A stretch of 64,000 bases of DNA from Candidatus Aminicenantes bacterium (GTDB taxonomy: Bacteria; Acidobacteriota; Aminicenantia; Aminicenantales; UBA4085): the NCBI GenBank assembly GCA_017883285.1, contig JADGNV010000098.1, positions 244 to 64,243 of the forward strand, given 5' to 3'. The notes under the pieces are model-generated. The model saw only the letters and a program-made list of their open reading frames with translations. It was not told the origin of the DNA and searched no databases. The translations under genes and the position numbers were made by a program. This document shows, piece by piece, positions 2,593-41,070 of the stretch; positions within the stretch are counted from its first letter, which is position 1; every line of letters begins with the position of its first letter.

Positions 2593-4053
<1,461 letters not shown>

Positions 4054-4199
4054 TTATTTTGATTTTAATAAAAAAGTCCGGCCCTGATTAGGCTGCGGGC
4101 GAAAGCATTCCAGATTTCTGGAAGCCGATGAAGATGCGCTGGATTCGACGCGTCAACGATCCGAGGGTGAAGACCTCAGAGTCCGCTGCAAAAGCTTTC

Positions 4200-4228
4200 T
4201 TGACATTAAAAATGTCAGAGGGTATTTT
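4200..4228 (+). promoter_or_regulatory. Sigma70-like promoter with an overlapping palindrome upstream of the GDH-like operon
   Basis: TTGACA (4200-4205), 17-nt spacer, TATTTT (4223-4228). The inverted repeat TGACAT-taaaa-ATGTCA (4201-4217) overlaps the -35 box and could be an operator. Recognised by eye only. Confidence 0.4.
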
Positions 4229-4302: not shown

Positions 4303-5589
4303 ATGAGCCAAAAGCCTTTTAACTCATTCGACATGGCTCAGTCCCAGTTTGACAGGATCGCCGACCTGCTCGGGTTGGACGGCCCCACCAGAGATTTTTT
4401 GCGGTGGCCGATGCGAGAATATCAATTTCTGATCCCTATCCGCATGGATGACGGCCGGGCCGGAATTTTTCGGGGATTTCGTGTTCTTCATAATGATGCC
4501 CGGGGCCCTGGGAAGGGCGGCCTTCGCTTTCACCCCCAGGAAACGATCGATACGATCCGTGCGCTGGCGATGTGGATGACCTGGAAATGCGCCCTCATGG
4601 ATATTCCTCTGGGGGGGAGCAACGGCGGCGTTGTTTGCGATCCTCACAACCTCAGCTTGAGAGAACAGGAACGGCTCTGCCGGGGCTGGGTGAGGCAATT
4701 GTCCAGAGATTTAGGGCCTCAAATCGACGTGCCCGCTCCGGAGATCATGACGAATGCTCAGCATATGTTGTGGATGCTGGATGAATTCGAAGCGATCCGC
4801 GAGCAGAAGCTGCCGGGGTTTATCACCGGCAAACCGGTTGTCTTAGGCGGCTCTCTCGGCCGCCTCGAAGCGGCGGGTTTCGGACTGGCCTTTACGCTGC
4901 GGGAAGCGCTTAAAGAGCTGGGCATGCGGCCGGAGGACACGACGGCCGGCGTTCAGGGATTCGGCAACCTCGGCCAGCATGCGATTCGGCTTTATCAACA
5001 GATGGGAGGCCGGGTGATCTGCGTCGCGTGTTGGGATCAAAAAGACGGAACGTCCTATACCTATAAAAAAGATTCAGGAATTGATTTCAACAGCCTTCTG
5101 AGCGTGACCGATCGCTTTGGAGGAATAGAAAAAAAAGGAGCTCAAGATCTGGGTTACGATGTGCTTCCGGGAAACGCGTGGCTCGAGCAGGACGTCGATA
5201 TCCTGATACCGGCGGCATTGGAAAACCAAATCACGATCGACCATGTGAAAAAAATACGTCCCCGCGTGAAAATCATTGCCGAGGGCGCGAACGGCCCGAT
5301 GACAGCCGAGGCGGATAAAGCGATCGCAAGCCGGGATATATTCCTTATTCCGGATATTCTGGCGAATGCGGGCGGCGTAACCTGCAGCTATTTCGAGCAG
5401 GTTCAGAGCCATATGAATTATTACTGGGAAAAAGACGAGGTCCTGGGCAAGTTGGACGTGAAAATGAATTCGGCATTCCATGCGGTTCTCGAATTGGCGA
5501 AAGAAAAGAGTCTTTCGATGCGGGATGCAGCTTTTTCCATCGCTATCGCCCGCGTGGCTCAAGCCTGTAAAGACCGGGGCTGGGTGTGA
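4303..5589 (+). CDS. Glu/Leu/Phe/Val dehydrogenase-family protein with non-canonical active site (probable pseudo-enzyme or sensor)
   Basis: 428 aa. It keeps [11 protein letters not shown] and MTWKCAL, and has a Rossmann-type GFGNLG. The catalytic GG[GSA]KGG Lys is Asn (PLGGSNGG, codon AAC 4621-4623). The catalytic Asp of DVPAPD is Glu (DVPAPE, GAG 4741-4743). Confidence 0.85.
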   Translation: MSQKPFNSFDMAQSQFDRIADLLGLDGPTRDFLRWPMREYQFLIPIRMDDGRAGIFRGFRVLHNDARGPGKGGLRFHPQETIDTIRALAMWMTWKCALMDIPLGGSNGGVVCDPHNLSLREQERLCRGWVRQLSRDLGPQIDVPAPEIMTNAQHMLWMLDEFEAIREQKLPGFITGKPVVLGGSLGRLEAAGFGLAFTLREALKELGMRPEDTTAGVQGFGNLGQHAIRLYQQMGGRVICVACWDQKDGTSYTYKKDSGIDFNSLLSVTDRFGGIEKKGAQDLGYDVLPGNAWLEQDVDILIPAALENQITIDHVKKIRPRVKIIAEGANGPMTAEADKAIASRDIFLIPDILANAGGVTCSYFEQVQSHMNYYWEKDEVLGKLDVKMNSAFHAVLELAKEKSLSMRDAAFSIAIARVAQACKDRGWV

Positions 5590-5644
5590 TGCCGGCGACG
5601 GGCCGTTTCCGGAATGCGTGAAGCGCTTCAAACGCGGGATTTGA

Positions 5645-7402
5645 ATGTTAAAAAATAGAGGTCAGTCTTTTATGATGAACCCGGCGCCCTTCGATCGCCA
5701 TTTTTTTACGGGCAAGGAAAAATTCACCCTCATCGGCCGGGGCGCGTTGGGCGGGAAGGCTCACGGCCTGGCCGTCATGAAGGAAATTCTTGAAATACAA
5801 ATCACCCCCCGGTTCTTACCTGAGATCCATGTCGGGATCCCGACCTTGACGGTGATCGCGACCGATGTCTTTGACCTTTTCATGAAAGAAAACAGGTTAT
5901 CCGACGTCGCCTTGTCCGACCTGCGCGACGATCTGATCGCCCAAGCTTTTCAAAAAGCAGAATTTCCGGTCCAGCTTGTCGGCGATTTGAGAGCCCTCAT
6001 TTCTCAAGTCCACACACCCCTGGCGATCCGGTCCTCGAGCCTGCTCGAGGATGCCATGTTTGAGCCGTTTGCCAGCGTCTATGCGACGAAGATGATCCCC
6101 AATAATCAATGGGATACGGATACGCGTTTCCGTAAACTTGTGGAGGCCATAAAATATGTCTATGCGTCGACTTTTTTTAGGGACGCTAAAAACTATATGC
6201 GGGCCACAAAACATACGACGGCCGATGAAAAAATGGCGGTCATTATTCAAGAGGTGGTCGGAAACCGCCTAGGCGATCGTTTTTATCCCCATATATCCGG
6301 GGTCGCCCGCTCCCACAATTATTATCCGCTCGGCCATGCCAAACCCGGCGACGGCGTGATCGACCTGGCGCTCGGATTGGGCAAAAGCATCGTCGACGAT
6401 GGAGTCGGCTGGTCATTTTCGCCGGCCTATCCTCAGGCGAATCCCCCCTACGTGTCCATCAACGCGCTTTTAGAGCAATCTCAGACCGAATTCTGGGCCA
6501 TTAACATGGGACAACCGGGAGAATATAATCCCATCAAGGAAACCGAATACCTGCTGAAATTCAACTTGGAAGACGCGGAAGGAGACGGGACTTTGCGCTT
6601 CATCGCTTCCACGTATCGGCCGCAAGACGACAAAATCGTCTTCGGGATCGTCGAAAAAGGACCGAGGATTGTCGATTTCTCCCCGATCTTGAAATTAGAT
6701 CTCATCCCTCTCAACAACCTACTCCGGACTCTCCTAAAAATAGCCGAAGACACGCTGGAAAGAATGGTGGAGATTGAGTTCGCCTTGACGCTCGACGAAA
6801 CCCGGGGCACGCCCGCGCGCTTCGGCTTTCTCCAAGTCAGGCCGATGGTGGTTTCCGAAGCGAAAGTCGATGTCTCCCTGCGCGAACTTACGGGAGAAAA
6901 CGTCCTTGTGGCATCCGAATCCGTTCTGGGCAATGGAATTCTTGAGGACATTCAGGATATCGTCTACGTCAAACCCGAAAAATTCGACATTCATCAAACG
7001 CAAAATATCGCCGCTCAATTGGAGGTCTTGAACCAGCAATTGACGGCCTCCGGGAAGGCCTTCCTTCTCGTGGGCTTCGGCCGCTGGGGCTCTTCCGATC
7101 CTCAAGGGGGCATCCCCGTCAACTTCGGACAAATCTCCGGGGCGAAAGCGATTGTCGAGTCGACATTGCCGGAGATGAATTTCATGTTCAGCCAAGGGTC
7201 TCATTTTTTCCATAACATCACGAGCTTTCGAGTCCTTTATTTTTCCGTGCCCCATTGGGAGAAGTATACGATTGATTGGAACTGGCTGAAACGGCAAAAC
7301 GCCGTTGCCGAAACGGAATCTGTCCGCCATGTCAAACTTCTTTCTCCCTTGAAAATCAAAGTGGATGGCAGGACGAGCCGAGGAGTCATTTGTCATGCCT
7401 GA
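5645..7402 (+). CDS. PEP/pyruvate-binding (PPDK_N ATP-grasp) domain protein, paralog 1; no swivel-His or PEP-utilizer barrel
   Basis: 585 aa. It carries GRGALGGKAHGL, IRSSSLLED and MAVIIQEVVG...ISGVARSHN, matching PpsA/PPDK N-domain signatures. The C-terminal domain has GFGRWGS...SQGSHFFHN. An alternative start is the ATG near 5672, which has AGAGG upstream. Confidence 0.85.
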   Translation: MLKNRGQSFMMNPAPFDRHFFTGKEKFTLIGRGALGGKAHGLAVMKEILEIQITPRFLPEIHVGIPTLTVIATDVFDLFMKENRLSDVALSDLRDDLIAQAFQKAEFPVQLVGDLRALISQVHTPLAIRSSSLLEDAMFEPFASVYATKMIPNNQWDTDTRFRKLVEAIKYVYASTFFRDAKNYMRATKHTTADEKMAVIIQEVVGNRLGDRFYPHISGVARSHNYYPLGHAKPGDGVIDLALGLGKSIVDDGVGWSFSPAYPQANPPYVSINALLEQSQTEFWAINMGQPGEYNPIKETEYLLKFNLEDAEGDGTLRFIASTYRPQDDKIVFGIVEKGPRIVDFSPILKLDLIPLNNLLRTLLKIAEDTLERMVEIEFALTLDETRGTPARFGFLQVRPMVVSEAKVDVSLRELTGENVLVASESVLGNGILEDIQDIVYVKPEKFDIHQTQNIAAQLEVLNQQLTASGKAFLLVGFGRWGSSDPQGGIPVNFGQISGAKAIVESTLPEMNFMFSQGSHFFHNITSFRVLYFSVPHWEKYTIDWNWLKRQNAVAETESVRHVKLLSPLKIKVDGRTSRGVICHA

Positions 7403-10400
7403 TCAGCCCAAGAATAGCGACAATTTGATTTGGTTTCTCTCCGAAAGGGCTAAGGAGCTGAACTGTCTGTATAAAATCGAGGAGCTTCTCAATAGGCCGG
7501 ACGCGAGTCTAGACGATATTTGTTACGGCATCATCGAGGCCATCCCGCCGGGCTGGCAATATCCGGATATTTGCGTCGCTCAGATTGCCCTTGAGGGCCA
7601 CACCTGCCAATCTCTAAACTTTAAAGAAACGCCCTGGGTGCAGTTTGCCGACATCAAAGTCCAGGAGCAGCAGATCGGCCGGCTTAGCATTCATTACACG
7701 GCCGAAATGCCCCATATGGATGACGGCCCTTTTCTTAAAGAAGAAACGAAACTGTTGGGTACGATCGTCGAACGCCTGGGGCATTACATCCAATATGCGA
7801 GGATGAAACAAGTTTATCAAGAATACCAGGCCGCCAGAGGCAATCGGACCGAACGCACGGCCGAAGAGTGGCGTTTCGCTTTGAATTTTTTACGGGAGAC
7901 GAACAAAAATCTCTTTCTGGATATTTCCCGCCGCATGCTGAATTTTTTATGCTGGAGCGGAATCAGCGACGCCGAGGTTCTCCTCCAGAAAGCGGGCGGG
8001 GGGCTCCGATCGAGAGACGACGGCGCGCCGACCGGTGAAAACCGTCCCGACCCCAAAAGCTCGGCCTCTTTTAGCGCTCAACTCCTCGACGAAACGTTCA
8101 AGCTTGCGGCGAAACATCTCACGAATGAACAAATTCTGGCCAATATCCAAAAGTGGATCCAGGAAGACCGGCTCAGCTTTTTAGTCCAGATTACAAATCG
8201 AAATCTGCCGCTGGCCAAGGTCGTCGATGCCATCCGGCGCTATCACCATATTGCCGCGGAAGGCATCGAGCTGCCCCCGCCGAGCCAACGAGGGGTCCAA
8301 GTCTCTCTGATCCAGCGTTTTCTCTCGGCCAGACAGGAGTTCGTCAACACGGCCGTGGAGTATATCGACATCGACGATTTTTATGAAGTGTTAGCTCATA
8401 TCGTCTTTTCTCCGGAAAGCCAAGGGAGACTGGGCGGGAAAAGCACCGGATTGTTCCTGGCGAAACACATCATCCGGAAATGCGGTTCTTCGTCCGATCT
8501 TCTAAGAGACATCAAGGTCCCCAAAACATGGTATATCACTTCGGACGGATTGTTGAGTTTTCTCAACTATAACAACCTCAACGAGGCTGTTGAACAAAAA
8601 TATAAAGATATCAATCAGGTGCGGCTCGAATATCCTCATCTCGTCCAAACTTTCAAGAATTCCGTCTTCCCGACGGACATCATCCAAGGTCTCTCGGTGG
8701 TCCTGGATGATTTCAAGGACCAGCCTCTGATCGTCCGAAGCTCAAGCCTGCTTGAAGATCGCATGGGATCGTCGTTTTCGGGAAAATACAAGAGTCTTTT
8801 TCTGGCGAACCAGGGCAGCAAGCAGGAGCGCTTGGAAGCTCTCACCGATGCCATCGCCGAAGTTTATGCCTCCACCTTCGGTCCCGATCCAATCGGATAT
8901 CGGGCCGAACGGGGCCGGCTTGATTTCGCTGAAGAAATGGGAATCATGATTCAAGAAGTCGTCGGGACGAAAGTCGGCGACTATTTCCTGCCGGCTTATG
9001 CGGGGGTCGCCTTCAGCCGGAATGAATTCCGCTGGTCACCTCGCATCCGACGCGAGGACGGCTTGCTCCGGCTTGTCCCCGGGTTGGGAACCCGCGCCGT
9101 CGATCGGATCGGCGATGATTATCCCGTCTTGATGGCCCCCGGCCAGATCGGCCTTCGGGTGAACGTCTCTCCCGACGAGATCGTTCGCTATGCTCCGAAG
9201 AATGTTGACGCGATAAATCTCAAGAAGAATACGTTTGAAACCGTAGAAATCAAGGACCTCCTAAAAAAATTCGGCCATGAAATCCCCGCCGTGGAGAGGA
9301 TGGTCTCCATTCATGACGGCCCGCGGATTCGTCAGCCCGTAGGAAAAAATATCGACTTCACAAAGGATGATTTAATCGTCACGTTCGAGGGCCTGATCAT
9401 GGACACACGTTTCATCCCTCGCCTCAAATCCCTGCTTCAACTGTTGGAGGAAAAACTCAAAACTCCCGTGGATATCGAATTTGCCTCCGACGGCAAGGAT
9501 TTCTACCTCGTCCAATGCCGGCCTCAAAGCTATTTCGAAGGATGCGAGCCCTCTCCGGTTCCTCAAGACACTCCGAAAGAAAAAATCCTATTCTTCAGCA
9601 GCCGTTTCGTTTCCAACGGCAGGGTCCCCGATATTACACATATCGTCTACGTGAATCCGGAACGATATGACGCGCTGAACGATGAGCCAGCTCTGCTCGC
9701 CGTCGGACGGGCCGTCGGGAAACTCAATAAGCTCCTGCCTCGGCGGCGGTTCATCCTCATGGGCCCGGGACGCTGGGGAAGCCGGGGTGATATCAAACTG
9801 GGCGTGAAGGTCACGTACTCCGATATCTCGAATACGGCCGTCCTTGTGGAAATCGCCCGAAAAAAAGGCGATTATTCGCCCGACCTTTCCTTCGGGACGC
9901 ATTTCTTCCAGGATTTAGTGGAAGCCGAAATCCGCTATCTGCCGCTTTATCCGGGTGAAAAGGGCACGAAGTTCAACGAAGATTTTTTCCTGAAATCTCC
10001 GAATATCCTTCCCCAAATTTTGCCCGAGTTCGCCTTCCTCGCCGATATTGTCAGGGTCATTGATATTCCGAAGAGCACGGACGGCCTTGTCCTGAAAGTC
10101 CTGATGAACGCCGACCGGGACGAGGCCGCGGGAATCCTGGACAGCCCATCCCTAGGCGCGTCGGTTCCCATCGTTTCCCGGGAGCCGGCTGAAAAACGCT
10201 CGGAAAATTTTTGGGCCTGGCGGCTGCGGATGGCCGAGCGCCTCACATCCCGGCTCGACGCTATTCGCTTCGGCGTCAAAGGCTTATATGTCTTCGGCAG
10301 CACAAAAAATGCCACGGCCGGCCCTCAAAGCGATATCGATCTATTGGTTCATTTTCAGGGGACAAAGGAACAGCGCCAAGAGCTTCTGGTCTGGCTGGAG

Positions 10401-10586
10401 GGGTGGAGTTTAGCGTTAGACGAGATCAATTATCAAAAAACCGGCCTCCGAACGGGCGGTCTCCTCGATATCCATATCGTTACGGATGAAGATATCGCCA
10501 GACGGGAGAGCTACGCGGTGAAAATCGACGCGGTCACCGACGCGGCAAGACCCCTGACTCTGAAGAAGCCCGAGCCGATAAGCTAA
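7395..10586 (+). CDS. Multidomain protein: N-terminal sensor-like domain + PPDK_N ATP-grasp + GRWGS/GTHFF domain + C-terminal Pol-beta-type nucleotidyltransferase
   Basis: I place the start at the ATG at 7395, which overlaps the upstream stop (ATGCCTGA) and has GAGGAG about 9 nt upstream. N-terminus: ERAKELNCLYKIEELL...GPFLKEETKLLGTIVERL. ATP-grasp: GRLGGKSTGL, VRSSSLLED, MGIMIQEVVG. Then GPGRWGS...SFGTHFFQD. C-terminus about 10251-10583: VFGSTKNATAGPQSDIDLLV...LLDIHIV, which fits the GS-x10-DxD NTase motif. Confidence 0.85.
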   Translation: MPDQPKNSDNLIWFLSERAKELNCLYKIEELLNRPDASLDDICYGIIEAIPPGWQYPDICVAQIALEGHTCQSLNFKETPWVQFADIKVQEQQIGRLSIHYTAEMPHMDDGPFLKEETKLLGTIVERLGHYIQYARMKQVYQEYQAARGNRTERTAEEWRFALNFLRETNKNLFLDISRRMLNFLCWSGISDAEVLLQKAGGGLRSRDDGAPTGENRPDPKSSASFSAQLLDETFKLAAKHLTNEQILANIQKWIQEDRLSFLVQITNRNLPLAKVVDAIRRYHHIAAEGIELPPPSQRGVQVSLIQRFLSARQEFVNTAVEYIDIDDFYEVLAHIVFSPESQGRLGGKSTGLFLAKHIIRKCGSSSDLLRDIKVPKTWYITSDGLLSFLNYNNLNEAVEQKYKDINQVRLEYPHLVQTFKNSVFPTDIIQGLSVVLDDFKDQPLIVRSSSLLEDRMGSSFSGKYKSLFLANQGSKQERLEALTDAIAEVYASTFGPDPIGYRAERGRLDFAEEMGIMIQEVVGTKVGDYFLPAYAGVAFSRNEFRWSPRIRREDGLLRLVPGLGTRAVDRIGDDYPVLMAPGQIGLRVNVSPDEIVRYAPKNVDAINLKKNTFETVEIKDLLKKFGHEIPAVERMVSIHDGPRIRQPVGKNIDFTKDDLIVTFEGLIMDTRFIPRLKSLLQLLEEKLKTPVDIEFASDGKDFYLVQCRPQSYFEGCEPSPVPQDTPKEKILFFSSRFVSNGRVPDITHIVYVNPERYDALNDEPALLAVGRAVGKLNKLLPRRRFILMGPGRWGSRGDIKLGVKVTYSDISNTAVLVEIARKKGDYSPDLSFGTHFFQDLVEAEIRYLPLYPGEKGTKFNEDFFLKSPNILPQILPEFAFLADIVRVIDIPKSTDGLVLKVLMNADRDEAAGILDSPSLGASVPIVSREPAEKRSENFWAWRLRMAERLTSRLDAIRFGVKGLYVFGSTKNATAGPQSDIDLLVHFQGTKEQRQELLVWLEGWSLALDEINYQKTGLRTGGLLDIHIVTDEDIARRESYAVKIDAVTDAARPLTLKKPEPIS

Positions 10587-11446
10587 ATATGCTGTCGGGC
10601 GGCCGCCGCCAGATCGTCGGGATCAAATCTAACGAGGGCCAGCTCCGGACCATCGTGAGCAGCGGAAAAACAATGGGTGCGCCCAATCAGGTCTCTCCAA
10701 GACCACGAGAGTTTGGCGGATTCATGGACATGTCCGTGCAGGGTGAGCAGAGGCTGGCGGCTTTCAATAAAGCGCCGGACGGCAATGCTGCCCACATGCG
10801 GATCGAGCGGGACGTGATCAATCATCTTGCCTTCCAGCCCGGCCAGATCGAGCGCAGTTTTATAAGGGGGGGAATGGAAAAGAAAGATAGCTTTGTCCAT
10901 ACTATCATCACCTGTCAAGCGGGCGAGATCATCTTGAATAGTGGCGTAACGTTTTTCTTGGTCCGAGACCGGGAAGGAACGGATTCCCTCTTCGGGGGAA
11001 ATGCTGCCCAGATCGACAAAGCGAGAAACATCATATCGTTCCCAATCTTTTAGACGATAGGGAGTCGGCGGAACATAGGTATAACCATAGATCTGATAAT
11101 CACGAAAACCAGTTTTCCGATTATGGATATACTCCCATATCCCCTGAGAGGCGACGTCTCGGACCGCGGCTTCTTCAAAACGGGGGTCATCGTTGCCCAT
11201 GATGAGAAAAACCCGGGGATAAGCGTTCTTGAGGTCCTGGCGCAAGCGGATCAACTGTTTCAGAAGATATTTATAGATAAAATCTCTTGGGGAGATATGA
11301 ACGGACGTCGGTGGGTAATATGGCGCCGGTAGAAAATCTCCCCCGATGAAAACCGATTCAGGCCGCTCAGCCCCTATGGCTTGGAAGAGTTTTTGGTACC
11401 GCGCGGGATTTCCATGCAAATCTGTGACAAAAAAACAATTCGCCAT
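10583..11446 (-). CDS. Metallophosphoesterase (calcineurin-like)
   Basis: 287 aa with the ordered motifs DLHG, GGDF, GNDD, FHSPP and HGHVHE. Its stop overlaps the stop of the convergent 7395..10586 gene by 4 nt. Confidence 0.85.
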   Translation of the reverse strand: MANCFFVTDLHGNPARYQKLFQAIGAERPESVFIGGDFLPAPYYPPTSVHISPRDFIYKYLLKQLIRLRQDLKNAYPRVFLIMGNDDPRFEEAAVRDVASQGIWEYIHNRKTGFRDYQIYGYTYVPPTPYRLKDWERYDVSRFVDLGSISPEEGIRSFPVSDQEKRYATIQDDLARLTGDDSMDKAIFLFHSPPYKTALDLAGLEGKMIDHVPLDPHVGSIAVRRFIESRQPLLTLHGHVHESAKLSWSWRDLIGRTHCFSAAHDGPELALVRFDPDDLAAAARQHI

Positions 11447-11472: not shown

Positions 11473-12183
11473 CTAAGGCTTGGATTCCGCTTCGAATTTA
11501 TATCCCACGCCGTGAACCGTGTGAATATATTTTCTGGCTCTGCCGAGTTTTTTCCGGATGCCCGTAATCTGGTAATCCACGACCCTCTCGGTGATGGAGT
11601 AGTTGTCTTCGCGGACGTGATCCAAGATCCGAGACCGGGTAAAGACTTGATTCGGATTTCCGGCCAACAACGAGAGGATGTCGAATTCCGTTTTCGTGAG
11701 GTCGATTTTTTCTCCGTCGGCATGGACTTCGTAGGCGTCGAGGTTGATCGCCAACTCGTCGAATTCTAGGATGTGCCGGTCGCTGTTTTCCGATTTGTTT
11801 TTTCTGCGGAGCAGGGCGTGGATGCGGGCGATCAAGATTTGTGGCTCGAAGGGTTTGATGACATAATCATCCGCGTATTCTTTCAAGCCGAGGACGACGT
11901 CCTCGATCTTTCTTTTCCCGGTGAGCAGAATGATGAAGATATTGGCGGTTTGCACATCCTTCTTGAGAATCTGGCAGACTTTGTACCCGTCGATTCCGGG
12001 AAGGACGAGGTCCAAGAGAATCAGGTCGGGCTTTTCTTTACGGGTGATGATGACCGCTTCTTCCCCGGTTTGCGTGGATAATACTTTAAAGCCTTCTTTC
12101 TCGAGGATAAAGGCAAGGCTCTTTTGAAGACAGACATCATCTTCGACCAAAAGGATTTTGACTTTAGCCTGAGTTTCAGTCAT
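11473..12183 (-). CDS. OmpR/PhoB-family response regulator
   Basis: 236 aa. The receiver has LLVEDD, LILLDLVLPGIDG, ILLTGK and VIKPF. The winged-helix output has LTKTEFDILSLL and VHGVGYKF. Confidence 0.95.
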   Translation of the reverse strand: MTETQAKVKILLVEDDVCLQKSLAFILEKEGFKVLSTQTGEEAVIITRKEKPDLILLDLVLPGIDGYKVCQILKKDVQTANIFIILLTGKRKIEDVVLGLKEYADDYVIKPFEPQILIARIHALLRRKNKSENSDRHILEFDELAINLDAYEVHADGEKIDLTKTEFDILSLLAGNPNQVFTRSRILDHVREDNYSITERVVDYQITGIRKKLGRARKYIHTVHGVGYKFEAESKP

Positions 12184-12348: not shown

Positions 12349-13794
12349 TCACAGGCTACGATCGCTTCGAGCGTAAGTTTTTTGCCATTTCGCAAAAATC
12401 GAAATCAAGGTATCGCTCAATTTTGAGCCGCTTCCGTGGATCGGACGAAGCTCTTCGGCGAGCTTCGAATAGCCTTTTCTGTCCAACCAGGAGGAAATGA
12501 CATCGTTGTCGGAGAGCGGCTGGATGGCTTCGGACGGAACCGTCTGCAGCGCATGCAGGAGATCATCGAGGGTGAACGCTTTGAGGCCGTCGATGGTCAG
12601 GGGCGTGGCGTCGAGCTGGTGAATTTCTTTTTCCAGATGTCTTTTCAACAATGCGATCAGCCTCCGGCCCTGGCTGCGCTTGGGCCGCAGGACATCTCCG
12701 AGCTCTTGGTAGCTGTGCATATAAAGCCAGGTGGAGAATTTATCTTTTTGCCCGTAACTTTCCATGATTTTTCTCAGCTCCCGCGCAGGCTTGGTATTTT
12801 TTTCCGCGGCCCGTAGAATCCGGACCAGGCCTTGGATGTTTTTGATCCGATGCAGCTCCCGGCCGCTTTTGTCGAAAATCAAGAAGTCTCCCATCCCGGA
12901 ATGATCATGAATATGATCCTTGAGTTTATGAAGGCTCCCCGGATCTCCCTTGGGCAGAAGGAAGGCCGCGCCTTTTAACTCCTCGGCCTCCTTGGCTTTC
13001 GAAGCGATGATGATGGGAATCCGGGGGTAAAAGTGGGTGATCAAGCGGACGAGATCACGGCCGGCATCGTTGTCGGGCCGATGGGCTTTCGGAAAAAAAA
13101 CATCGGTGATCAAGCAAACGACATCGTCTCCATGGCCGCGCGATCGATAATCGCGGCCGTCGATTCGGGATTCGTCCTCCACGCCGAAGAGAAAGCGCAT
13201 GGTTTCTTCGTATGTTCGGGTGATCATCACGTCCGCGCGCTGCCCGATGATGCCGTAAAGAGTCGGCAGGAATTCCGAGAACCAGCGCGGTTCGTCGTCC
13301 ACGACTAGAAAGATAAACCGCCGGACTTTTGACGATTTCCGGATATTGATCAAATCTTCGGCGGCCCTGACGACCGAAGTGATGATCAGGGGAGGAACGA
13401 GGCTCGTCGTGCTGTAGGCAAAAACAAGATCGGCCTTGGCCGTGAAGGGATATTTGACTTGGGCCGGCTGGGGGGGCGAACAGTGAATAAAGGGATTTGC
13501 CGAAAACAGAACGAGCACGGAATCGGGATTATCTCTCCGGATTTTTCCGGCATCGACAAGCGGCAGGCTCGTATCGTCAAAGAGGAAAACCGTTGCCTGA
13601 TCGGATTTATATTGGGCCACGGACTGCGGGCTGCAGAGAATTTCGGTCTTGAGCCAGGGCATGTTTTCATCGAGGATCTGGGCGGATTCCCGGATCCGGG
13701 CTTCCGCGCAAAAGAAGACGGCCGAGGCGATCTTGACCGGATTGATGATTCGGGGGATGAAGGGAAATTCCCGGATCGGCTTTCTATCTGCCAT
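12349..13794 (-). CDS. Receiver-domain protein with uncharacterised N- and C-terminal domains
   Basis: The central receiver has FLVVDDEP (acidic pair), CLITDVFFP (phospho-acceptor Asp), IIIASKA and LLPKG. The start is set at MADRKPI (13794), which overlaps the upstream PPDK_N gene stop by 11 nt; the track start 13836 is possible. The C-terminus is homologous to the remnant at 2343..2507. Confidence 0.75.
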   Translation of the reverse strand: MADRKPIREFPFIPRIINPVKIASAVFFCAEARIRESAQILDENMPWLKTEILCSPQSVAQYKSDQATVFLFDDTSLPLVDAGKIRRDNPDSVLVLFSANPFIHCSPPQPAQVKYPFTAKADLVFAYSTTSLVPPLIITSVVRAAEDLINIRKSSKVRRFIFLVVDDEPRWFSEFLPTLYGIIGQRADVMITRTYEETMRFLFGVEDESRIDGRDYRSRGHGDDVVCLITDVFFPKAHRPDNDAGRDLVRLITHFYPRIPIIIASKAKEAEELKGAAFLLPKGDPGSLHKLKDHIHDHSGMGDFLIFDKSGRELHRIKNIQGLVRILRAAEKNTKPARELRKIMESYGQKDKFSTWLYMHSYQELGDVLRPKRSQGRRLIALLKRHLEKEIHQLDATPLTIDGLKAFTLDDLLHALQTVPSEAIQPLSDNDVISSWLDRKGYSKLAEELRPIHGSGSKLSDTLISIFAKWQKTYARSDRSL

Positions 13795-15454
13795 TTTCGA
13801 GGATGACCTTGCAGCGTTGCCGGATCGAGTCCGCATAAAGCGTCGCTGGACGAGGAAACGTCAAAAGGGACAGGGGCTCATCGGGCTGGGGCGAGGAAAA
13901 AAGCCACGGATCCAATTTGTCCCGACCGGGCATAATATAGCCGTAAATGATGTTGTTGCCCATCAGGTTTGTTAAGAAATGCGTTCCCTGCGTCCCATAC
14001 ATCCGGGTTTGAAGCCTTTTTTGGTCTTCGTCAAAGCCGCCTTGAATCATATAAAGAAAATGACTGCCATAGATCCCGCCGGTCAAGTAGCCTTCTTCCA
14101 GGAGAGGCTCCGCCCGACCGGCGATATCCACGCCGTATTCAAAAATGGCCGCCGCCCGGTCGACGTCCTTGTAATCCACGGAGAGCCCCCAATCCCGATT
14201 TTTGCTGCCCAACCGGCCGGGAACGATCAGGATGTAGCGCTCCCGGGCCTCCAGCATTTGACGGTTGATGGCGGCGATTTTGCCGCAGACCGGATCATGC
14301 AGGTCCTTCGTATAAGTGAAGGGAGAAACAACGACCGCATATTTAATCCCCCTGACGATGCCGTGTCCTTGAGAATTCGTGATCGCCAGAAACGTATGGC
14401 GGGGCTTTTGGGGAATTTGAAAAGACTCGAGTTTGAGCTCCGGCAGCGGCGTGAGCTGAACGATGGAAAACGTCCCGTCTTCTTTGTCCTTCTTGGCGAA
14501 GTTGATGTTGAAAACGAATTCGATCTGAAAATAGGGCGTGATGTGGGAGGCGATCGTTTCCATAATCTCGGCGAGGCTGGTTTTGAAACGGAAATGATCG
14601 TTTTGAATGAGCTCTTCGATGGTGATGAAGTTGTTGTGGAGCCCCAGCAATTTGATTTTATGGAAATTGGCGAACCGGATGTGCAATTTTTTCATGGTTT
14701 CCATTTCCTCTCCCTTCAAATCTCTATTCTTGGTCATGTCCAGAGCATAGAAATATTGCTGACCGTTCCCGATCTGGAGCAATTTGAGAGGAAGGGGGTT
14801 TTTGATGGTCGCCATGGAAATGACGGGAAAGTCATCCAGGACGGTGGCATACCCATGGCCGAAGGCGATCCGGGCGAAGCCTTCTGCCGGATCCTGCGTT
14901 TTCAGGGCATGGGGAAAATAGGAATTTGCGACTCCGGAGATATAGGGATAATAACAGGGCCCGGCCAGCGTATCATCGAAAATGCCGGGGATAGGGTTCA
15001 AAATGATCGCCATTTTTTCCCGGCTTGAAGGAGGCTGCTTCCGCTTAAAATCATGATAGATGTGGGAGATCGCCTGGTGGACTTGTTGAACGCGCATATG
15101 ATAATCCGGGTGATTGTTGGGCAGCATGTGGGATGTGTATTCTCCGGCATGAATGAGGGCCGCACCTCGGGCGGACGTCGCGGCTTCATTCGTCGCCGAG
15201 GAGCGAACGCCGATGGGGGCATCCCCCAATTCGGCTATAATCGAAGCCACGATATCCGATTCTTTTTTGTCGAATTTTCCGCCGCGGTCCATAAAACGGT
15301 CGTAGAATATAGTCGTGAGAATGCGCGTTTTGAGCTTATGGGCCTTCGGGATCGGACATTCATTGATTTTGGCCAGGCCGAGCCCTTTCCCGCCCGGAGA
15401 CCCCTCGCCGTAGATTTTCACGTCCCCGATTTTTTCAACGATTTTTAGACTCAT
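13784..15454 (-). CDS. PEP/pyruvate-binding (PPDK_N ATP-grasp) domain protein, paralog 3
   Basis: 556 aa with GEGSPGGKGLGL, VRSSATNEA and MAIILNPIPG...ISGVANSY. The C-terminal domain has VPGRLGS...IYGSHFLYM and TQGTHFLTN. No GG.T.HAA-type swivel motif is present. Confidence 0.85.
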   Translation of the reverse strand: MSLKIVEKIGDVKIYGEGSPGGKGLGLAKINECPIPKAHKLKTRILTTIFYDRFMDRGGKFDKKESDIVASIIAELGDAPIGVRSSATNEAATSARGAALIHAGEYTSHMLPNNHPDYHMRVQQVHQAISHIYHDFKRKQPPSSREKMAIILNPIPGIFDDTLAGPCYYPYISGVANSYFPHALKTQDPAEGFARIAFGHGYATVLDDFPVISMATIKNPLPLKLLQIGNGQQYFYALDMTKNRDLKGEEMETMKKLHIRFANFHKIKLLGLHNNFITIEELIQNDHFRFKTSLAEIMETIASHITPYFQIEFVFNINFAKKDKEDGTFSIVQLTPLPELKLESFQIPQKPRHTFLAITNSQGHGIVRGIKYAVVVSPFTYTKDLHDPVCGKIAAINRQMLEARERYILIVPGRLGSKNRDWGLSVDYKDVDRAAAIFEYGVDIAGRAEPLLEEGYLTGGIYGSHFLYMIQGGFDEDQKRLQTRMYGTQGTHFLTNLMGNNIIYGYIMPGRDKLDPWLFSSPQPDEPLSLLTFPRPATLYADSIRQRCKVILENGR

Positions 15455-37360: not shown

Positions 37361-40300
37361 TTAGGACCTCTGGTCCTGGACGCGGTAGTGCTCGACGCCG
37401 ACCTCGCGGACCTGCCGTTTGTACCGTTCGGCGACCGTGAGCGCGGGCGCGATCGGACTCGGCTTCGTCCGGACGTCGGCGATGTTCAACCGGGCGAAGC
37501 CGTTCCCGTCGCGCGCCTCGCCGGTGTTCCAATAGAACCGCACCCGGTCGCCGAGCCCGGCGCGCACCTGGCGGTCGATTTCCGACGAGATCTCGGCGAA
37601 CGTCGCGCCGATGCCCTCGATGCCGAACGCCTTCGCCAACCCCGCCAGGATCTCCCATGGGGGGGCGCCGAAGGGCGGCTTGACGGCCTGTGTGTAGCGC
37701 GTGAGTCGGCCTTCGAAATTGATGCGCGTTCCGTCGCTCTCCAGGAACGTGGAGCCGGGCAGGACGACGTCGGCGAACCGCGTGGTCTCGGTGGGGCACC
37801 AGTCCAGGGCGGCCAGGAATTCGGCGTTGCCGAAATACGAACCGATCTTGTCGTCCCGCATCGGGTCCTCGCCGATGATGAGCGCCGCCCGGATCCGCCC
37901 GTCCTTGAGCATCGCCCGGAGCTCGGCGCGGGATTTGGCGCCGGGCCGCCCGCCGGACGGCCGCCGTCCGGCTAGGAAACCCGGATCCGCCCCGACGACC
38001 TCCACGGCCGCCCCGTTCGCGCCGGCGAACGGCAGAATCAAATCGGCGCGGATGCTCTTGGCCCGGAGGAGGAGGACGAGATTCGCCAGCGCGACGGCGT
38101 CTCCGGGAGACTGGTCCTGCGTCCGGTCCGGACCGTGGATGAAGGCGACCTTCCCGGCGGCGGCGAGCCGGTCCGCGGCGGCGATGATCTTCTCCGCTTC
38201 GACCCCCGTCAATTCGGAGATCGCCTGCGGACTATAGTCGAAGAGATCGTTCAGGAATTCTTTGCCGCCCGGCAGCATCCGGACCGCGTCCCGGCCGAAG
38301 AAGCCGCGGTCGAGGAGGACCTGCATGACGCCGTTCCAGAGGAGCGCCGCCCGCCCGCGCATCGGGTCGAGGGAAAGCGCCGCCAGGCTGGCCAGCGGGC
38401 CGGCGGCCGAGCCGGCGGCGATGAGGATCGCGCCCTTGCGGACCGCGGCGATGATCTCGACGCCCAGGATCAGGTGGTCGTTTTGCGGATCGACGTTGTT
38501 GCAGACGATCAGGTCGGCCGATGTCACGGCCGAGCGGTCGGCCGTGGACGCGGTGAAGCCGAGCGACGCGTCGAGGGCCCCGGCTTCGGCGCCCGAGGCG
38601 AGGAGGGCGAGCGAACCGATGTTGTTGGTTCCGATCCCGTCGCGCGCGATCCGGGAGGCCAGGAACATCTCCTCGTTGGAGAGCTCCGGAGAGACGAACA
38701 CGCCGACCGCCTCCGGGCCGTGCTTTTCGGCCGCGCCCTTGAGCGCCGCGGCGGTCTTGGCCAGCGCGTCCGCGAGCGGGACGGCCTTGGGCTTGCCTCT
38801 CTCCCGGACCGTGGGTTGTTCGATCCGGCGCTGGGCGATGAATAGCTCGCTTCCGAATCGGCCGTAGCGGCACAGGTCGCTGCCCGGACGGCCAACCGAC
38901 GAGGTATAGTAGCGGTCCGCGTCGATCTTTTTGACGGCGAGCGGGCACCCGATCGAACAGAACGCGCAATGCGTTTCCACGTCCTCGGTCGGCAGGCACG
39001 CCCGGCCGGGGAACGGGAACTTCACGGTCAAGGCCCCGGTGGGACAGGCGTCCACGCAGTTGCCGCAGCTGATGCAGTTCGTTTCGACGAGCGGGTCGTT
39101 CATCGCCGGCCGCATCTCGGTCTTGAAGCCGCGGCCGACGAGCCCCAGGGCCGAGATCGGCAGCACGCGGGCGCAGGTCCGGATGCACCGGGCGCAGAGG
39201 ATGCACTTGTTCGGGTCGTAGACCACGTACGGATGGCGGTCGTCGACTTTGTGCTTGCGAATGGCGCCGGCGTAGCGGGCGAGATCGACGCCGTATTCCT
39301 CGGCGTAGCGGCGGAGATTGCAGCGGTCGTAGACCACGCAGCCGCAGGCGAGGCAGCGGGCGGACTCGTATTTCACGTCCTCGTCTTCGTAGCCCGTCGC
39401 GACCTCGGCGAAGCTTCCGCGCCGGGCTTCGACGTCGATTTCGGGAACCTCGTGCCGCGGGGATTCCTTCACGTCGCCGAGCTCGGCAGCGCCGGGCTTC
39501 GCCCAGAAGCTCTTCCGGACGACGAACGGCCGTTCCCGGACCTTCTCGCCGCTGAGCTGCTCGTGGATCGCGAGCGCGGCCCGCCGGCCGTCGCGCACCG
39601 CGTCGACCACGACCGTCGGCCCGTCGTCGGCGACGTCGCCCCCGGCATAGAGGCCGGGGACGTTGGTCTTCATCGTGGCCGGGTCGGCGACGATTGTGTT
39701 CCAGCGCGACGTCTTCGGCCCGTCGGCGCCGTCCGCGAGGCCGTCGAGCACCGGCTCCTGGCCGATGGCCGGGACCGCGAGGTCGCAGGGCAGCACGAAC
39801 TCGGACCCCTCCTGGGGGATCGGCCGGCGCCGTCCGGAGGAATCCGGCTCGCCGAGCTTCATCCGGATGCAGCGGAGCGCCTTCAGCCTGCCGTTTTCGG
39901 TGACGAGGCCGACGGGCGCCGCGAGCTCCATGATCTCGATCCCTTCCTTCAGGCCGTCCTCGATCTCCAGCTTGTCGGCCGGCATCTCGGCCTTCGTCCG
40001 CCGGTAGAGGAGGATGACCCGGTCCGCGCCGAGGCGCCACGCCGTCCGGGCCGCGTCCATCGCCGTGTTCCCCCCGCCGACCACGACCACGATCCCTTTC
40101 ACGGGATCGCGGCGTTCCGCCTTGGACATCAGAAAATCGACGCCCTTGACGATGCCTGCTGTGGTCCCCTCGCCTTCGACGCCCATGTCCTTGCTGCCCA
40201 TGGCGCCGGCGGCGATGAAGACGGCGGCGTGTTTCTCCATGAGCTCAGTCAGGGAGACGTCCGCGCCGACGCGCACCCCCGTCCTGATCTCGGCCCCGGA

Positions 40301-41062
40301 GCGGCGGATGTAATCGATCTCGCGGTCGAGCACGTCGTTCGGCAGCCGGTATTCCGGGATGCCGTAGCGGAGCATCCCGCCCGGCTTGGGCAGGGCTTCG
40401 TAGATGACGGGATCATATCCGTAGAGGCCGAGATACCAGGCGGCCGTGAGCCCGGCGGGGCCCGAGCCCACGATGCCGACGGTCAGGCCGCGGGAAGGCA
40501 ACCGCTCGGGCGCTTCGTCGTAGGCGCCGGGGCGGTCGGTGACGAACCGCTTGATGGCGTTGATCCCGACCGGCTCGTCGATGTCGGCCCTCCGGCACTC
40601 GATTTCGCACTTGCGCACGCAGATCCGGCCGCACACCGCCGGGAGCGGGTTCATCTCCCGGATGAGTTGCACCGCGCGCCCGTATTGCCCCATCGCGGCC
40701 AGGGCCACATAGCCCTGGCAGTCCACGCCGGCGGGGCAGGCCAGGGCGCACGGCGAGACGCAGTCGGCGTAATGGTTCGAGAGGAGGAGTTCGAGCGCGG
40801 TCCGCCGCGACGCGACGATCCGCTCGTTGCGGGTCGTGATCTTCATCCCCTCGGCCACGCGGGTCGCGCAGGCGGGGACGAGGTTCGGCCGCCCGGCGAC
40901 TTCCACCACGCACAGGAAGCAGGAGCCGTAAGGCTCGAGCTCCGGCGAATGGCAGAGGGTGGGGATGGAGTCGAGCGCGTTCTCGGCGACGACCTCCAGG
41001 ATCGTCTTGGCGGAGTCCGCCGCGATCTTTCGCTCGTTGATCTCGACCGTGACGGCTGCCAT
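37361..41062 (-). CDS. Fusion oxidoreductase subunit: NuoG-type 2Fe-2S + GltD/NfnB-like FAD/NAD(P)H module + 4Fe-4S clusters + molybdopterin-oxidoreductase-like domain lacking catalytic residues
   Basis: The true start is MAAVTVEINERK (1233 aa, counted), with GAGGA upstream. The track ORF (1785 aa) carries a 552-codon junk extension across the NuoF-like gene. Motifs in order: CHSPELEPYGSCFLCVV; CVSPC..CP...GRICVRKCEIEC; GIVGSGPAGL; VVGGGNTAMDAART; CILCARCIRTC; CISCGNCVDACP; HCAFCSIGCP. Confidence 0.85.
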   Translation of the reverse strand: MAAVTVEINERKIAADSAKTILEVVAENALDSIPTLCHSPELEPYGSCFLCVVEVAGRPNLVPACATRVAEGMKITTRNERIVASRRTALELLLSNHYADCVSPCALACPAGVDCQGYVALAAMGQYGRAVQLIREMNPLPAVCGRICVRKCEIECRRADIDEPVGINAIKRFVTDRPGAYDEAPERLPSRGLTVGIVGSGPAGLTAAWYLGLYGYDPVIYEALPKPGGMLRYGIPEYRLPNDVLDREIDYIRRSGAEIRTGVRVGADVSLTELMEKHAAVFIAAGAMGSKDMGVEGEGTTAGIVKGVDFLMSKAERRDPVKGIVVVVGGGNTAMDAARTAWRLGADRVILLYRRTKAEMPADKLEIEDGLKEGIEIMELAAPVGLVTENGRLKALRCIRMKLGEPDSSGRRRPIPQEGSEFVLPCDLAVPAIGQEPVLDGLADGADGPKTSRWNTIVADPATMKTNVPGLYAGGDVADDGPTVVVDAVRDGRRAALAIHEQLSGEKVRERPFVVRKSFWAKPGAAELGDVKESPRHEVPEIDVEARRGSFAEVATGYEDEDVKYESARCLACGCVVYDRCNLRRYAEEYGVDLARYAGAIRKHKVDDRHPYVVYDPNKCILCARCIRTCARVLPISALGLVGRGFKTEMRPAMNDPLVETNCISCGNCVDACPTGALTVKFPFPGRACLPTEDVETHCAFCSIGCPLAVKKIDADRYYTSSVGRPGSDLCRYGRFGSELFIAQRRIEQPTVRERGKPKAVPLADALAKTAAALKGAAEKHGPEAVGVFVSPELSNEEMFLASRIARDGIGTNNIGSLALLASGAEAGALDASLGFTASTADRSAVTSADLIVCNNVDPQNDHLILGVEIIAAVRKGAILIAAGSAAGPLASLAALSLDPMRGRAALLWNGVMQVLLDRGFFGRDAVRMLPGGKEFLNDLFDYSPQAISELTGVEAEKIIAAADRLAAAGKVAFIHGPDRTQDQSPGDAVALANLVLLLRAKSIRADLILPFAGANGAAVEVVGADPGFLAGRRPSGGRPGAKSRAELRAMLKDGRIRAALIIGEDPMRDDKIGSYFGNAEFLAALDWCPTETTRFADVVLPGSTFLESDGTRINFEGRLTRYTQAVKPPFGAPPWEILAGLAKAFGIEGIGATFAEISSEIDRQVRAGLGDRVRFYWNTGEARDGNGFARLNIADVRTKPSPIAPALTVAERYKRQVREVGVEHYRVQDQRS

Positions 41063-41070
41063 ATTCGTCC

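Follow-up and report, generated by a model that had tools for sequence, protein, structure and literature searches.

The window analysed here is a stretch of 64,000 nucleotides from a Candidatus Aminicenantes bacterium (assembly GCA_017883285.1, contig JADGNV010000098.1, positions 244 to 64,243 of the forward strand). Near its start lies the gene for a glutamate dehydrogenase (GDH)-like protein, here called GDHL, in which both catalytic residues of the enzyme family are replaced. Two genes for proteins with a PPDK_N domain follow on the same strand, a metallophosphoesterase gene converges on them from the other side, and a canonical gdhA lies upstream:

2593-3954, minus strand: canonical gdhA, 453 amino acids (aa), of the E. 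coli/Clostridium-type NADP-GDH family; divergent from GDHL; GGGKGG and AGD motifs both normal
4303-5589, plus strand: GDHL, 428 aa, both Glu/Leu/Phe/Val dehydrogenase domains, catalytic Lys replaced by Asn107 and catalytic Asp by Glu147
4621-4623, plus strand: AAC codon of Asn107, in the catalytic Lys column (K125 of the Clostridium symbiosum enzyme)
4741-4743, plus strand: GAG codon of Glu147, in the catalytic Asp column (D165 of the C. symbiosum enzyme)
5645-7402, plus strand: PPDK1, 585 aa, a PPDK_N (ATP-grasp) domain and a conserved C-terminal domain of ~170 aa that has no family assignment
7395-10586, plus strand: PPDK2NT, 1063 aa, with a GAF-like N-terminus, a PPDK_N ATP-grasp domain and an MNT-type nucleotidyltransferase C-terminus
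10583-11446, minus strand: metallophosphoesterase, 287 aa, convergent with PPDK2NT and a conserved member of the gene cassette in many phyla

In Glu/Leu/Phe/Val dehydrogenases, the Lys of the GG[GSA]KGG motif and the Asp of the D[VI]PA[PG]D motif form the established catalytic pair. GDHL belongs to this superfamily over its full length: both Pfam domains score above the gathering threshold, PF02812 with 164.5 bits over model positions 1-128 of 129 (E = 1e-48) and PF00208 with 219.8 bits over positions 1-241 of 241 (E = 6e-65). Its motifs are an 11-residue stretch at residues 68-78 that includes K71, MTWKCAL at 92-98 that includes K95, PLGGSNGG at 102-109, DVPAPE at 142-147 and GFGNLG at 219-224. 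A first-pass annotation of the locus had placed Asn in PLGGSNGG and Glu in DVPAPE at the two catalytic columns and had proposed an alignment check, which confirms both. Alignments with the Pyrococcus/Thermococcus GDHs (1gtm and 1euz; phmmer, E ~1e-113) are gapless over residues 9-170 and set N107 beneath the Lys of GGgKGG and E147 beneath the Asp of PAPD. The BLASTP alignment of GDHL with the neighbouring gdhA gives identical columns (PLGGSNGG with PMGGGKGG, DVPAPEI with DVPAGDI) and agrees with the earlier description of that gene as carrying the normal motifs. No register shift restoring a Lys or Asp at the catalytic columns appears in the alignments to solved GDHs or to the neighbouring gdhA.

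GDHL therefore has Asn107 where the catalytic Lys belongs and Glu147, a conservative change, in place of the catalytic Asp. The equivalents of the glutamate-binding residues K89, K113, R205 and S380 are present, as is the GxGxxG dinucleotide motif. In the family alignment, K71, K95, R187, N330, S362 and G219-F-G-N222 are invariant, both in sequences that lack Lys at column 107 (Lys-less) and in those that have it (Lys-type); the substrate lysines and the dinucleotide fold had rightly been described as retained. GDHL falls short of the NCBIfam GDH equivalog cut-off, its best model being GdhA_Arch with 432.6 bits where 750 are required. The neighbouring gdhA clears the PRK09414 model (756 bits, 536 being required).

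The residues at the two columns were compared across the 120 nearest database proteins, which are 72-100% identical to GDHL and almost all 428 aa long. Column 107 holds Lys in 39 of them, His in 25, Asn in 22, Ser in 19, Tyr in 11 and Thr in 4, and the flanking P102, L103, G104, G105, G108 and G109 are invariant; column 147 holds Asp in 79 and Glu in 41. Written as residues at columns 107/147, the states sort by falling similarity to GDHL as N/E, H/E and T/E (at least 78% identity), then S/D, N/D and Y/D, then K/D. The Lys-less set comprises 83 sequences, 23 of them with Asn at column 107, and all 117 sampled Lys-type members of the family have Lys there. A neighbor-joining tree built with columns 107 and 147 masked places the 83 Lys-less sequences in a single derived group (84 leaves) that arises from within the K/D sequences. 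The fewest changes that parsimony allows on this tree are 11 for column 107 and 8 for column 147. In bootstrap analysis of a 74-sequence subset, a group with at most two Lys-type sequences was found in 71 of 100 replicates, and a basal Lys-less sequence was displaced in 28 of 100. Asn and His alternate repeatedly at column 107 between near-identical sequences. The codons used are AAC (Asn), CAT (His), AGC or TCT (Ser), TAT (Tyr) and ACC (Thr), all but TCT one step from AAC or its synonym AAT, and there is no clear return to Lys within the clade. As reconstructed from these sequences, the history appears to be one loss of the Lys, or a few, and then repeated switching at column 107.

A scan of one genome per species returned 80 loci, 67-73% identical to GDHL, from Zixibacteria, Ignavibacteria, Acidobacteriota, Gemmatimonadota, Calditrichota, Krumholzibacteriota, Planctomycetota, Myxococcales, Spirochaetia and others. 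Column 107 is Lys in 78 of these, with Asp at column 147 as well in 77 of the 78. More distantly, 148 of the 150 nearest GDH cluster representatives at 50% identity (P0361-P0510) span both columns, and 136 of the 148 have Lys and Asp. The other 12 (~8%) lack the catalytic Lys or Asp, and in 11 the Lys column is Met, Gln, Arg, Val, His, Phe or Cys; Lys-less GDH homologues thus arise repeatedly in nature. One such representative, P0412, has also lost the K89 equivalent and the EGAN motif and belongs to a different, more degenerate GDH-like lineage. The GDHL gene itself was recovered in contigs of four independent peat, soil and permafrost runs with one silent-position difference (5256) and both catalytic codons unchanged, which rules out a sequencing or assembly error behind N107 and E147. 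Taken with the uniform Lys of the 117 Lys-type members and the Lys and Asp of 136 of 148 representatives, this recovery excludes chance or sequencing error as the source of the replacements.

GDHL is under strong purifying selection, with a ratio of nonsynonymous to synonymous substitution rates (dN/dS) of ~0.08. Nei-Gojobori values from the window's pairwise comparisons across eight Lys-less loci are 0.06-0.09 for GDHL, 0.04-0.09 for the adjacent gdhA and ~0.08-0.12 for PPDK1, PPDK2NT and the metallophosphoesterase; because dS is near saturation (~1 or higher), these ratios are rough, though none comes anywhere near 1. The two sets have the same mean column entropy (Lys-less 0.712, Lys-type 0.710), at mean pairwise distances of 0.297 and 0.286, and the site entropy profiles of the two sets correlate (Spearman 0.76). 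With catalytic residues lost and purifying selection in force, GDHL is a pseudo-enzyme in the operational sense.

Differences between the two sets are confined to a few sites. Those invariant in Lys-type and variable in Lys-less sequences are Q62, I74, V85, V99, K107, I165, T191 and T333, of which Q62, T191 and T333 are conserved even in the distant neighbouring gdhA. T191, which we take to be T209 of the C. symbiosum enzyme, a residue presumed to help position the nicotinamide ring, occurs in all 116 K/D-type sequences and is lost in many members of the Lys-less clade. Sequences in the N/D state keep Q62 and T191, and those in the S/D and Y/D states have V62. The E147 subclade, which includes the window's GDHL, has L62, Met or Ile at 99, often A191, and Met or Leu at 333. 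Eight positions that are conserved elsewhere carry a fixed difference in this subclade (Q62L, V98L, D147E, T188L, V195L, A224G, F352I and Y411F); only V195L separates all Lys-less from all Lys-type sequences. The pattern across the alignment indicates that the relaxation of constraint is local and stepwise, not general. Near the active-site motifs, the Lys-less sequences have acquired no Lys, Arg or His that could serve as a replacement. A relocated catalytic Lys is ruled out, as Lys gains occur only at the variable positions 247, 255, 278 and 402.

The genes downstream of GDHL form a conserved cassette with the order GDH-like gene, PPDK1, PPDK2NT and, on the opposite strand, the metallophosphoesterase. 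Among Lys-type loci whose downstream sequence reaches at least 5.5 kb, 53 of 56 have it; they span more than 10 phyla, and the convergent metallophosphoesterase is often present there. GDHL is a member of the cassette-linked GDH-like family as we delimit it (~428 aa, at least 67% identity, PPDK1 and PPDK2NT following on the same strand), and this family is tight (67-100% identity). In the window, the GDHL stop is separated from the PPDK1 start by 55 nt in which no terminator-like site was found, and the PPDK2NT start at 7395 overlaps the PPDK1 stop by 8 nt (ATGCCTGA). Because of this layout, the three genes are probably co-transcribed. Separately, a run whose RNA type is uncertain (X25) has two 151-nt contigs at depth 2 within 5323-5668, one inside GDHL and the other across the GDHL-PPDK1 gap with 8 mismatches; they hint, at most, at read-through transcription in a close relative.

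The first-pass annotation had tied the position at the head of the PPDK_N operon to the dead enzyme. GDHL does head the operon, but intact K/D orthologues head it too, in many phyla, and the operon link is therefore older than the loss of catalysis. Its suggestion to check whether orthologues with the N/E pair also neighbour PPDK_N genes had a similarly divided outcome: the Lys-less relatives in the sampled loci do adjoin them, but so do the K/D orthologues.

The partner proteins resemble known proteins at the domain level. The AlphaFold model of PPDK2NT has a mean predicted local distance difference test score (pLDDT) of 64, with 72-88 over the N-terminal 100 residues. When it was searched against the PDB with Foldseek, it matched the ATP-binding domain of rifampin phosphotransferase, phosphoenolpyruvate (PEP) synthase and HpeI; its N-terminus matched GAF domains (NifA, Nlh1/2; TM-score to target 0.5-0.6) and its C-terminus MNT-type nucleotidyltransferases, whose G-S...S-D-I-D motif is invariant in PPDK2NT. 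The PPDK1 model (pLDDT 68) matches the same ATP-grasp domains, and its confidently modelled C-terminal domain of ~170 aa gave no clear structural match with Foldseek. Both proteins keep the motifs GGK, RSS, (D/E)xEF and QxRP, which we take to be the ATP-grasp catalytic motifs of PPDK. In the domain of ~170 aa that follows the ATP-grasp in both proteins, GxGRWG and G[ST]HFF are invariant; the G-S/T-H motif and its position recall the phosphohistidine domain of PEP-utilising enzymes, and Pfam has no match there. A relaxed Pfam scan of PPDK1, PPDK2NT, PPDK3 and a 495-aa protein found no PEP-utilizers or other extra domain. Sequence search of the PDB gave nothing for PPDK2NT or the metallophosphoesterase and, for PPDK1, a single marginal and irrelevant match (2ynk, E = 0.018). 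The cassette was also considered as a known defence system and rejected, PADLOC giving only generic nucleotidyltransferase and phosphoesterase domain matches. Long proteins with a related GDH domain offered no informative fusion partner. The closest homologues of the partner proteins are mostly named Candidatus Aminicenantes, and the window sequence is present in peat, soil and permafrost metagenomes.

The Lys-less loci differ from the Lys-type loci in their surroundings. Ten were sampled: the window, seven found by exact-protein look-up (L081, L082, L083, L084, L086, L087 and L088) and two from the genome scan (L068 and L075). In eight of the ten (the window and the seven look-up loci), a canonical 453-aa gdhA lies directly upstream in divergent orientation, and these eight span the states H/E, S/D, Y/D, N/D, T/E and N/E. 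L075 has a gdhA beside the metallophosphoesterase. By comparison, a nearby gdhA occurs in 1 of the 78 Lys-type loci (L046); a Fisher test of gdhA adjacency against Lys loss gave p = 1.8e-7 on an earlier set of these loci. A canonical gdhA beside the cassette accompanies Lys loss. GDHL shares only 31% identity with the neighbouring GdhA, which is of another GDH subfamily. The longest reading frame of the window's gdhA begins at GTG 4026 (477 aa); its orthologues begin at ATG 3954 (453 aa, MSNYVSDF...), and so the likely start is ATG 3954, which gives a gdhA/GDHL intergenic region of 348 bp. That region and the far side of the cassette hold the remaining features of interest:

4027-4076, no strand assigned: AT-rich block of ~50 bp (GTTATAAATTTATTTGGTTTTTATTTTGATTTTAATAAAAAAG) between gdhA and GDHL, conserved in 5 of 6 related loci, in a genome of 61% G+C
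4200-4228, plus strand: sigma-70-type promoter-like site TTGACA-17-TATTTT upstream of GDHL, conserved in related loci
11473-12183, minus strand: OmpR/PhoB-type response regulator, present in 6 of the 10 Lys-less loci including the window
12349-13836, minus strand: unassigned protein of ~490 aa, paired with the PPDK1-like paralogue in Lys-less loci, L031 and L075
13784-15454, minus strand: PPDK1-like paralogue, 556 aa; its PPDK_N match is weak (Pfam E = 1.2e-5; 25.2 bits, where the family cut-off is 27)

The response regulator is found in all of the eight loci with upstream gdhA except L084 and L088. It is an orphan, with no histidine kinase to be seen in its neighbourhood. The positions of the 495-aa protein and the PPDK1-like paralogue are filled in all eight but L088, where the contig ends first, and tblastn confirmed both homologies in all six loci where it was run. 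On the tree, L046 (K/D, with gdhA) and L031 (K/E, with the extra gene pair) fall just outside the Lys-less group, a placement that fits arrival of the accessory genes and gdhA first and loss of the Lys afterwards. The AT-rich block may be a shared regulatory site and is perhaps a target of the nearby OmpR/PhoB-type regulator. A palindrome over the -35 hexamer (TGACATTAAAAATGTCA) was dropped as a regulatory element, not being conserved in related loci. An Rfam scan of the whole window gave no match, and thus no riboswitch or leader upstream of GDHL.

We consider it probable that GDHL is a catalytically disabled GDH paralogue with a non-catalytic ligand-binding or partner role in the cassette, catalysis having passed to the adjacent GdhA. 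The first-pass annotation had described what a ligand-sensing pseudo-enzyme would look like, and the evidence supports it on several points: column 107 is variable among 83 relatives between invariant flanks, no compensating Lys is present, other residues conserved across GDHs are worn away step by step, the protein is under selection and the binding residues are kept. One would expect a residue that catalyses a new reaction to be fixed, and the variability of column 107 therefore favours a pseudo-enzyme. The residues present suggest that GDHL has no GDH activity and still binds its ligand. Physical or regulatory coupling to the PPDK_N proteins and a role as sensor are proposals, as is any function given to the cassette as a whole, and the earlier idea that GDHL may feed a metabolic input (glutamate, 2-oxoglutarate or NAD(P)H) into the PPDK_N system is to be viewed in the same way.

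The course of events that we envisage starts from an ancestral cassette GDH that would have combined GDH catalysis with a part as ligand-binding or scaffolding partner of the PPDK_N proteins, in a cassette that needs GDH chemistry close by. In the window's lineage, which consists mostly of Aminicenantes, a canonical NADP-type gdhA would have been placed beside the cassette behind a divergent promoter and would have taken over catalysis. The chemistry residues of GDHL would thereby have been freed from selection: the catalytic Lys would have been lost, its column would then have drifted among small polar residues, and other residues of the chemical step would have eroded, with the binding residues and the rest of the protein held under strong constraint.

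Several points weigh against this. The tree was made by neighbor-joining only, and the two basal Lys-less loci, L068 and L075, are unstable in it; L068, moreover, has no gdhA in the 3.4 kb available upstream. The saturation of dS given above belongs here as well, as does the moderate confidence of the structure models. Glu for Asp is a conservative replacement, and locus L031 pairs it with an intact Lys. Column 107 is limited to Asn, His, Ser, Thr and Tyr in the Lys-less clade, with Asp and Ile never seen, and this restriction could point to a functional requirement, possibly a catalytic one. The K128H variant of E. coli GDH reportedly has residual activity, and some clade members (the H/E sisters have His) may accordingly keep weak activity. 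Lastly, PPDK2NT carries a GAF sensor domain of its own, as judged by fold match, so that a separate sensor protein is not obviously needed.

The limited choice of residues at column 107 is also what keeps alive the alternative named in the first-pass annotation, an enzyme of changed chemistry, for example one reducing 2-oxoglutarate to 2-hydroxyglutarate, or a weak GDH working through another base. All five residues are polar and hydrogen-bonding, and several of them act as general acids in other dehydrogenases. Fully conserved substrate and cofactor sites under strong selection would suit an enzyme, and the eight fixed differences of the E147 subclade, with T188L and A224G inside active-site motifs, could reflect retuning and not decay. 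Against this, no one residue is fixed at the Lys column, with Asn and His alternating among near-identical sequences, which makes changed chemistry less likely; Asn is neither acid nor base; apart from V195L nothing is fixed between Lys-less and Lys-type sequences; and many clade members have lost the T191 that is universal in the K/D-type sequences. We therefore retain changed chemistry as a rival and regard it as unlikely. A gene decaying without remaining function, which the two replaced catalytic residues might suggest, is barely credible: dozens of lineages keep an unbroken frame of the same 428 aa and the promoter is conserved, and the column entropy, equal to that of the Lys-type orthologues, together with the dN/dS refutes it.

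Two other explanations accept a non-catalytic GDHL and differ as to its partner. GDHL could be a regulatory subunit in mixed oligomers with the adjacent GdhA, as in the Thermus GdhA/GdhB system, with the PPDK_N genes as mere neighbours. The divergent gdhA is tightly linked through the Lys-less clade, the conserved intergenic region is common to both genes, and Thermus provides a precedent. But the adjacent GdhA is the sole candidate for such a pairing, and at 31% identity and in different subfamilies, the two proteins would be less likely to share a hexamer interface; the linkage of GDHL to PPDK_N genes is far older and wider than that to gdhA, and L068 lacks a gdhA within its 3.4 kb of upstream sequence. 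This arrangement seems rather unlikely to us. Alternatively, GDHL could be a substrate of the cassette, phosphorylated or nucleotidylylated by the PPDK_N/nucleotidyltransferase proteins and restored by the metallophosphoesterase, with column 107 as a possible acceptor. The invariant G-S...S-D-I-D motif suggests an active nucleotidyltransferase, the pairing of a nucleotidyltransferase with a phosphoesterase suits a scheme of attachment and removal, and Lys, His, Ser, Thr and Tyr are all possible acceptors. However, the Asn found in GDHL and in 23 of the 83 clade members can take neither a phosphoryl nor an adenylyl group, which rules out column 107 as the covalent acceptor in GDHL, and GDH structures have this column far down inside the active-site cleft. 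GDHL might still be modified at another site, and we judge the explanation as a whole improbable.

A wider proposal can be made, tentatively. The cassette would be an undescribed, widespread system that signals or modifies according to carbon-nitrogen status, in which a hexameric GDH reads glutamate, 2-oxoglutarate and NAD(P)H on behalf of enzymes that put a modification on and take it off; the window's Aminicenantes clade would then display the stepwise passage from enzyme to pure sensor or scaffold, catalysis having been taken over by a second GDH. Such a reading is possible, and we put it forward with considerable reserve.

Every public name that we found for members of the Lys-less clade is glutamate dehydrogenase, so that a non-working GDH has probably been counted in metabolic reconstructions made for Aminicenantes and related bacteria of peat and soil. 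The clade also offers a clean natural series for the study of pseudo-enzyme evolution, with essentially one Lys loss, switching among five residues and stepwise erosion, all unfolding under unchanged overall constraint and with a replacement enzyme encoded next door. Attention is drawn as well to a conserved multi-phylum cassette that has no described function and whose partner proteins can be related to solved or characterised proteins only domain by domain; the link to GDH provides a concrete experimental starting point.

Elsewhere in the window, a reading frame of 1785 aa at 37361-42718 on the minus strand combines a 2Fe-2S domain, a GltD-like FAD/NAD(P) oxidoreductase, 4Fe-4S clusters and a molybdopterin oxidoreductase domain. 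It is an unusually large fusion of a formate-dehydrogenase-like protein with one resembling the small subunit of glutamate synthase.

Among known systems, the closest solved relatives of GDHL are the hexameric GDHs of Pyrococcus furiosus and Thermococcus (1gtm, 1euz and 1bvu) and Bacillus subtilis RocG/GudB (3k8z and 7mfm), which match over the full length with E values of ~1e-113 to 1e-110. They share with GDHL the two-domain fold, the substrate lysines of GPxKGG and WK, and the GGSxGR, GxGN and GGVxxSYFE motifs; they carry the catalytic Lys and Asp, whereas GDHL has Asn and Glu and is linked to PPDK_N genes. The Lys-type orthologues among the genome loci (within L001-L080) are 67-73% identical and ~428 aa long, and have the same gene order as the window's cassette. 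They differ in keeping K107, D147, Q62, T191 and T333 and in having no adjacent canonical gdhA, except in L046. The ATP-grasp domains of PPDK1 and PPDK2NT resemble those of rifampin phosphotransferase, PEP synthase, PPDK and HpeI (Foldseek E 1e-5 to 7e-10; Pfam PPDK_N). Unlike those enzymes, neither protein has a detectable PEP-utilizers (phosphohistidine) domain or PEP/pyruvate domain, and PPDK2NT adds the GAF-like and MNT-type nucleotidyltransferase parts.

In the literature on the cassette and on Lys-less GDH homologues, we found only precedents from Thermus. T. thermophilus GdhA (3aoe) is described as an inactive regulatory subunit of a GdhA-GdhB hetero-hexamer (Tomita 2010, 2011, as reported in bioRxiv 10.1101/2025.10.31.685773). 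As far as that account goes, it resembles our reading of GDHL in being a GDH paralogue that lacks activity, lies beside an active GDH and has a regulatory role. On the same account, it differs in working with a close paralogue and in the response of the complex to leucine, whereas the GDH next to GDHL is only 31% identical and the conserved partners are the PPDK_N proteins. In sequence, 3aoe_E ranks 23rd among the PDB matches of GDHL (E = 6e-64), behind many active GDHs, from which we conclude that the GDHL lineage is independent of Thermus GdhA. The second precedent is ADLP of T. thermophilus, an alanine-dehydrogenase-like pseudo-enzyme whose catalytic Lys is replaced and which senses NAD+ (bioRxiv 10.1101/2025.10.31.685773). 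It follows the logic proposed here for GDHL, in that an amino-acid dehydrogenase has its catalytic Lys replaced, keeps NAD(H) binding and regulates another enzyme, but it comes from another dehydrogenase family and its partner is a CoA transferase. Set beside these cases, the Lys-less clade is a new, well-populated lineage of a known kind, the amino-acid dehydrogenase turned pseudo-enzyme, in a new setting, a cassette conserved across many phyla.

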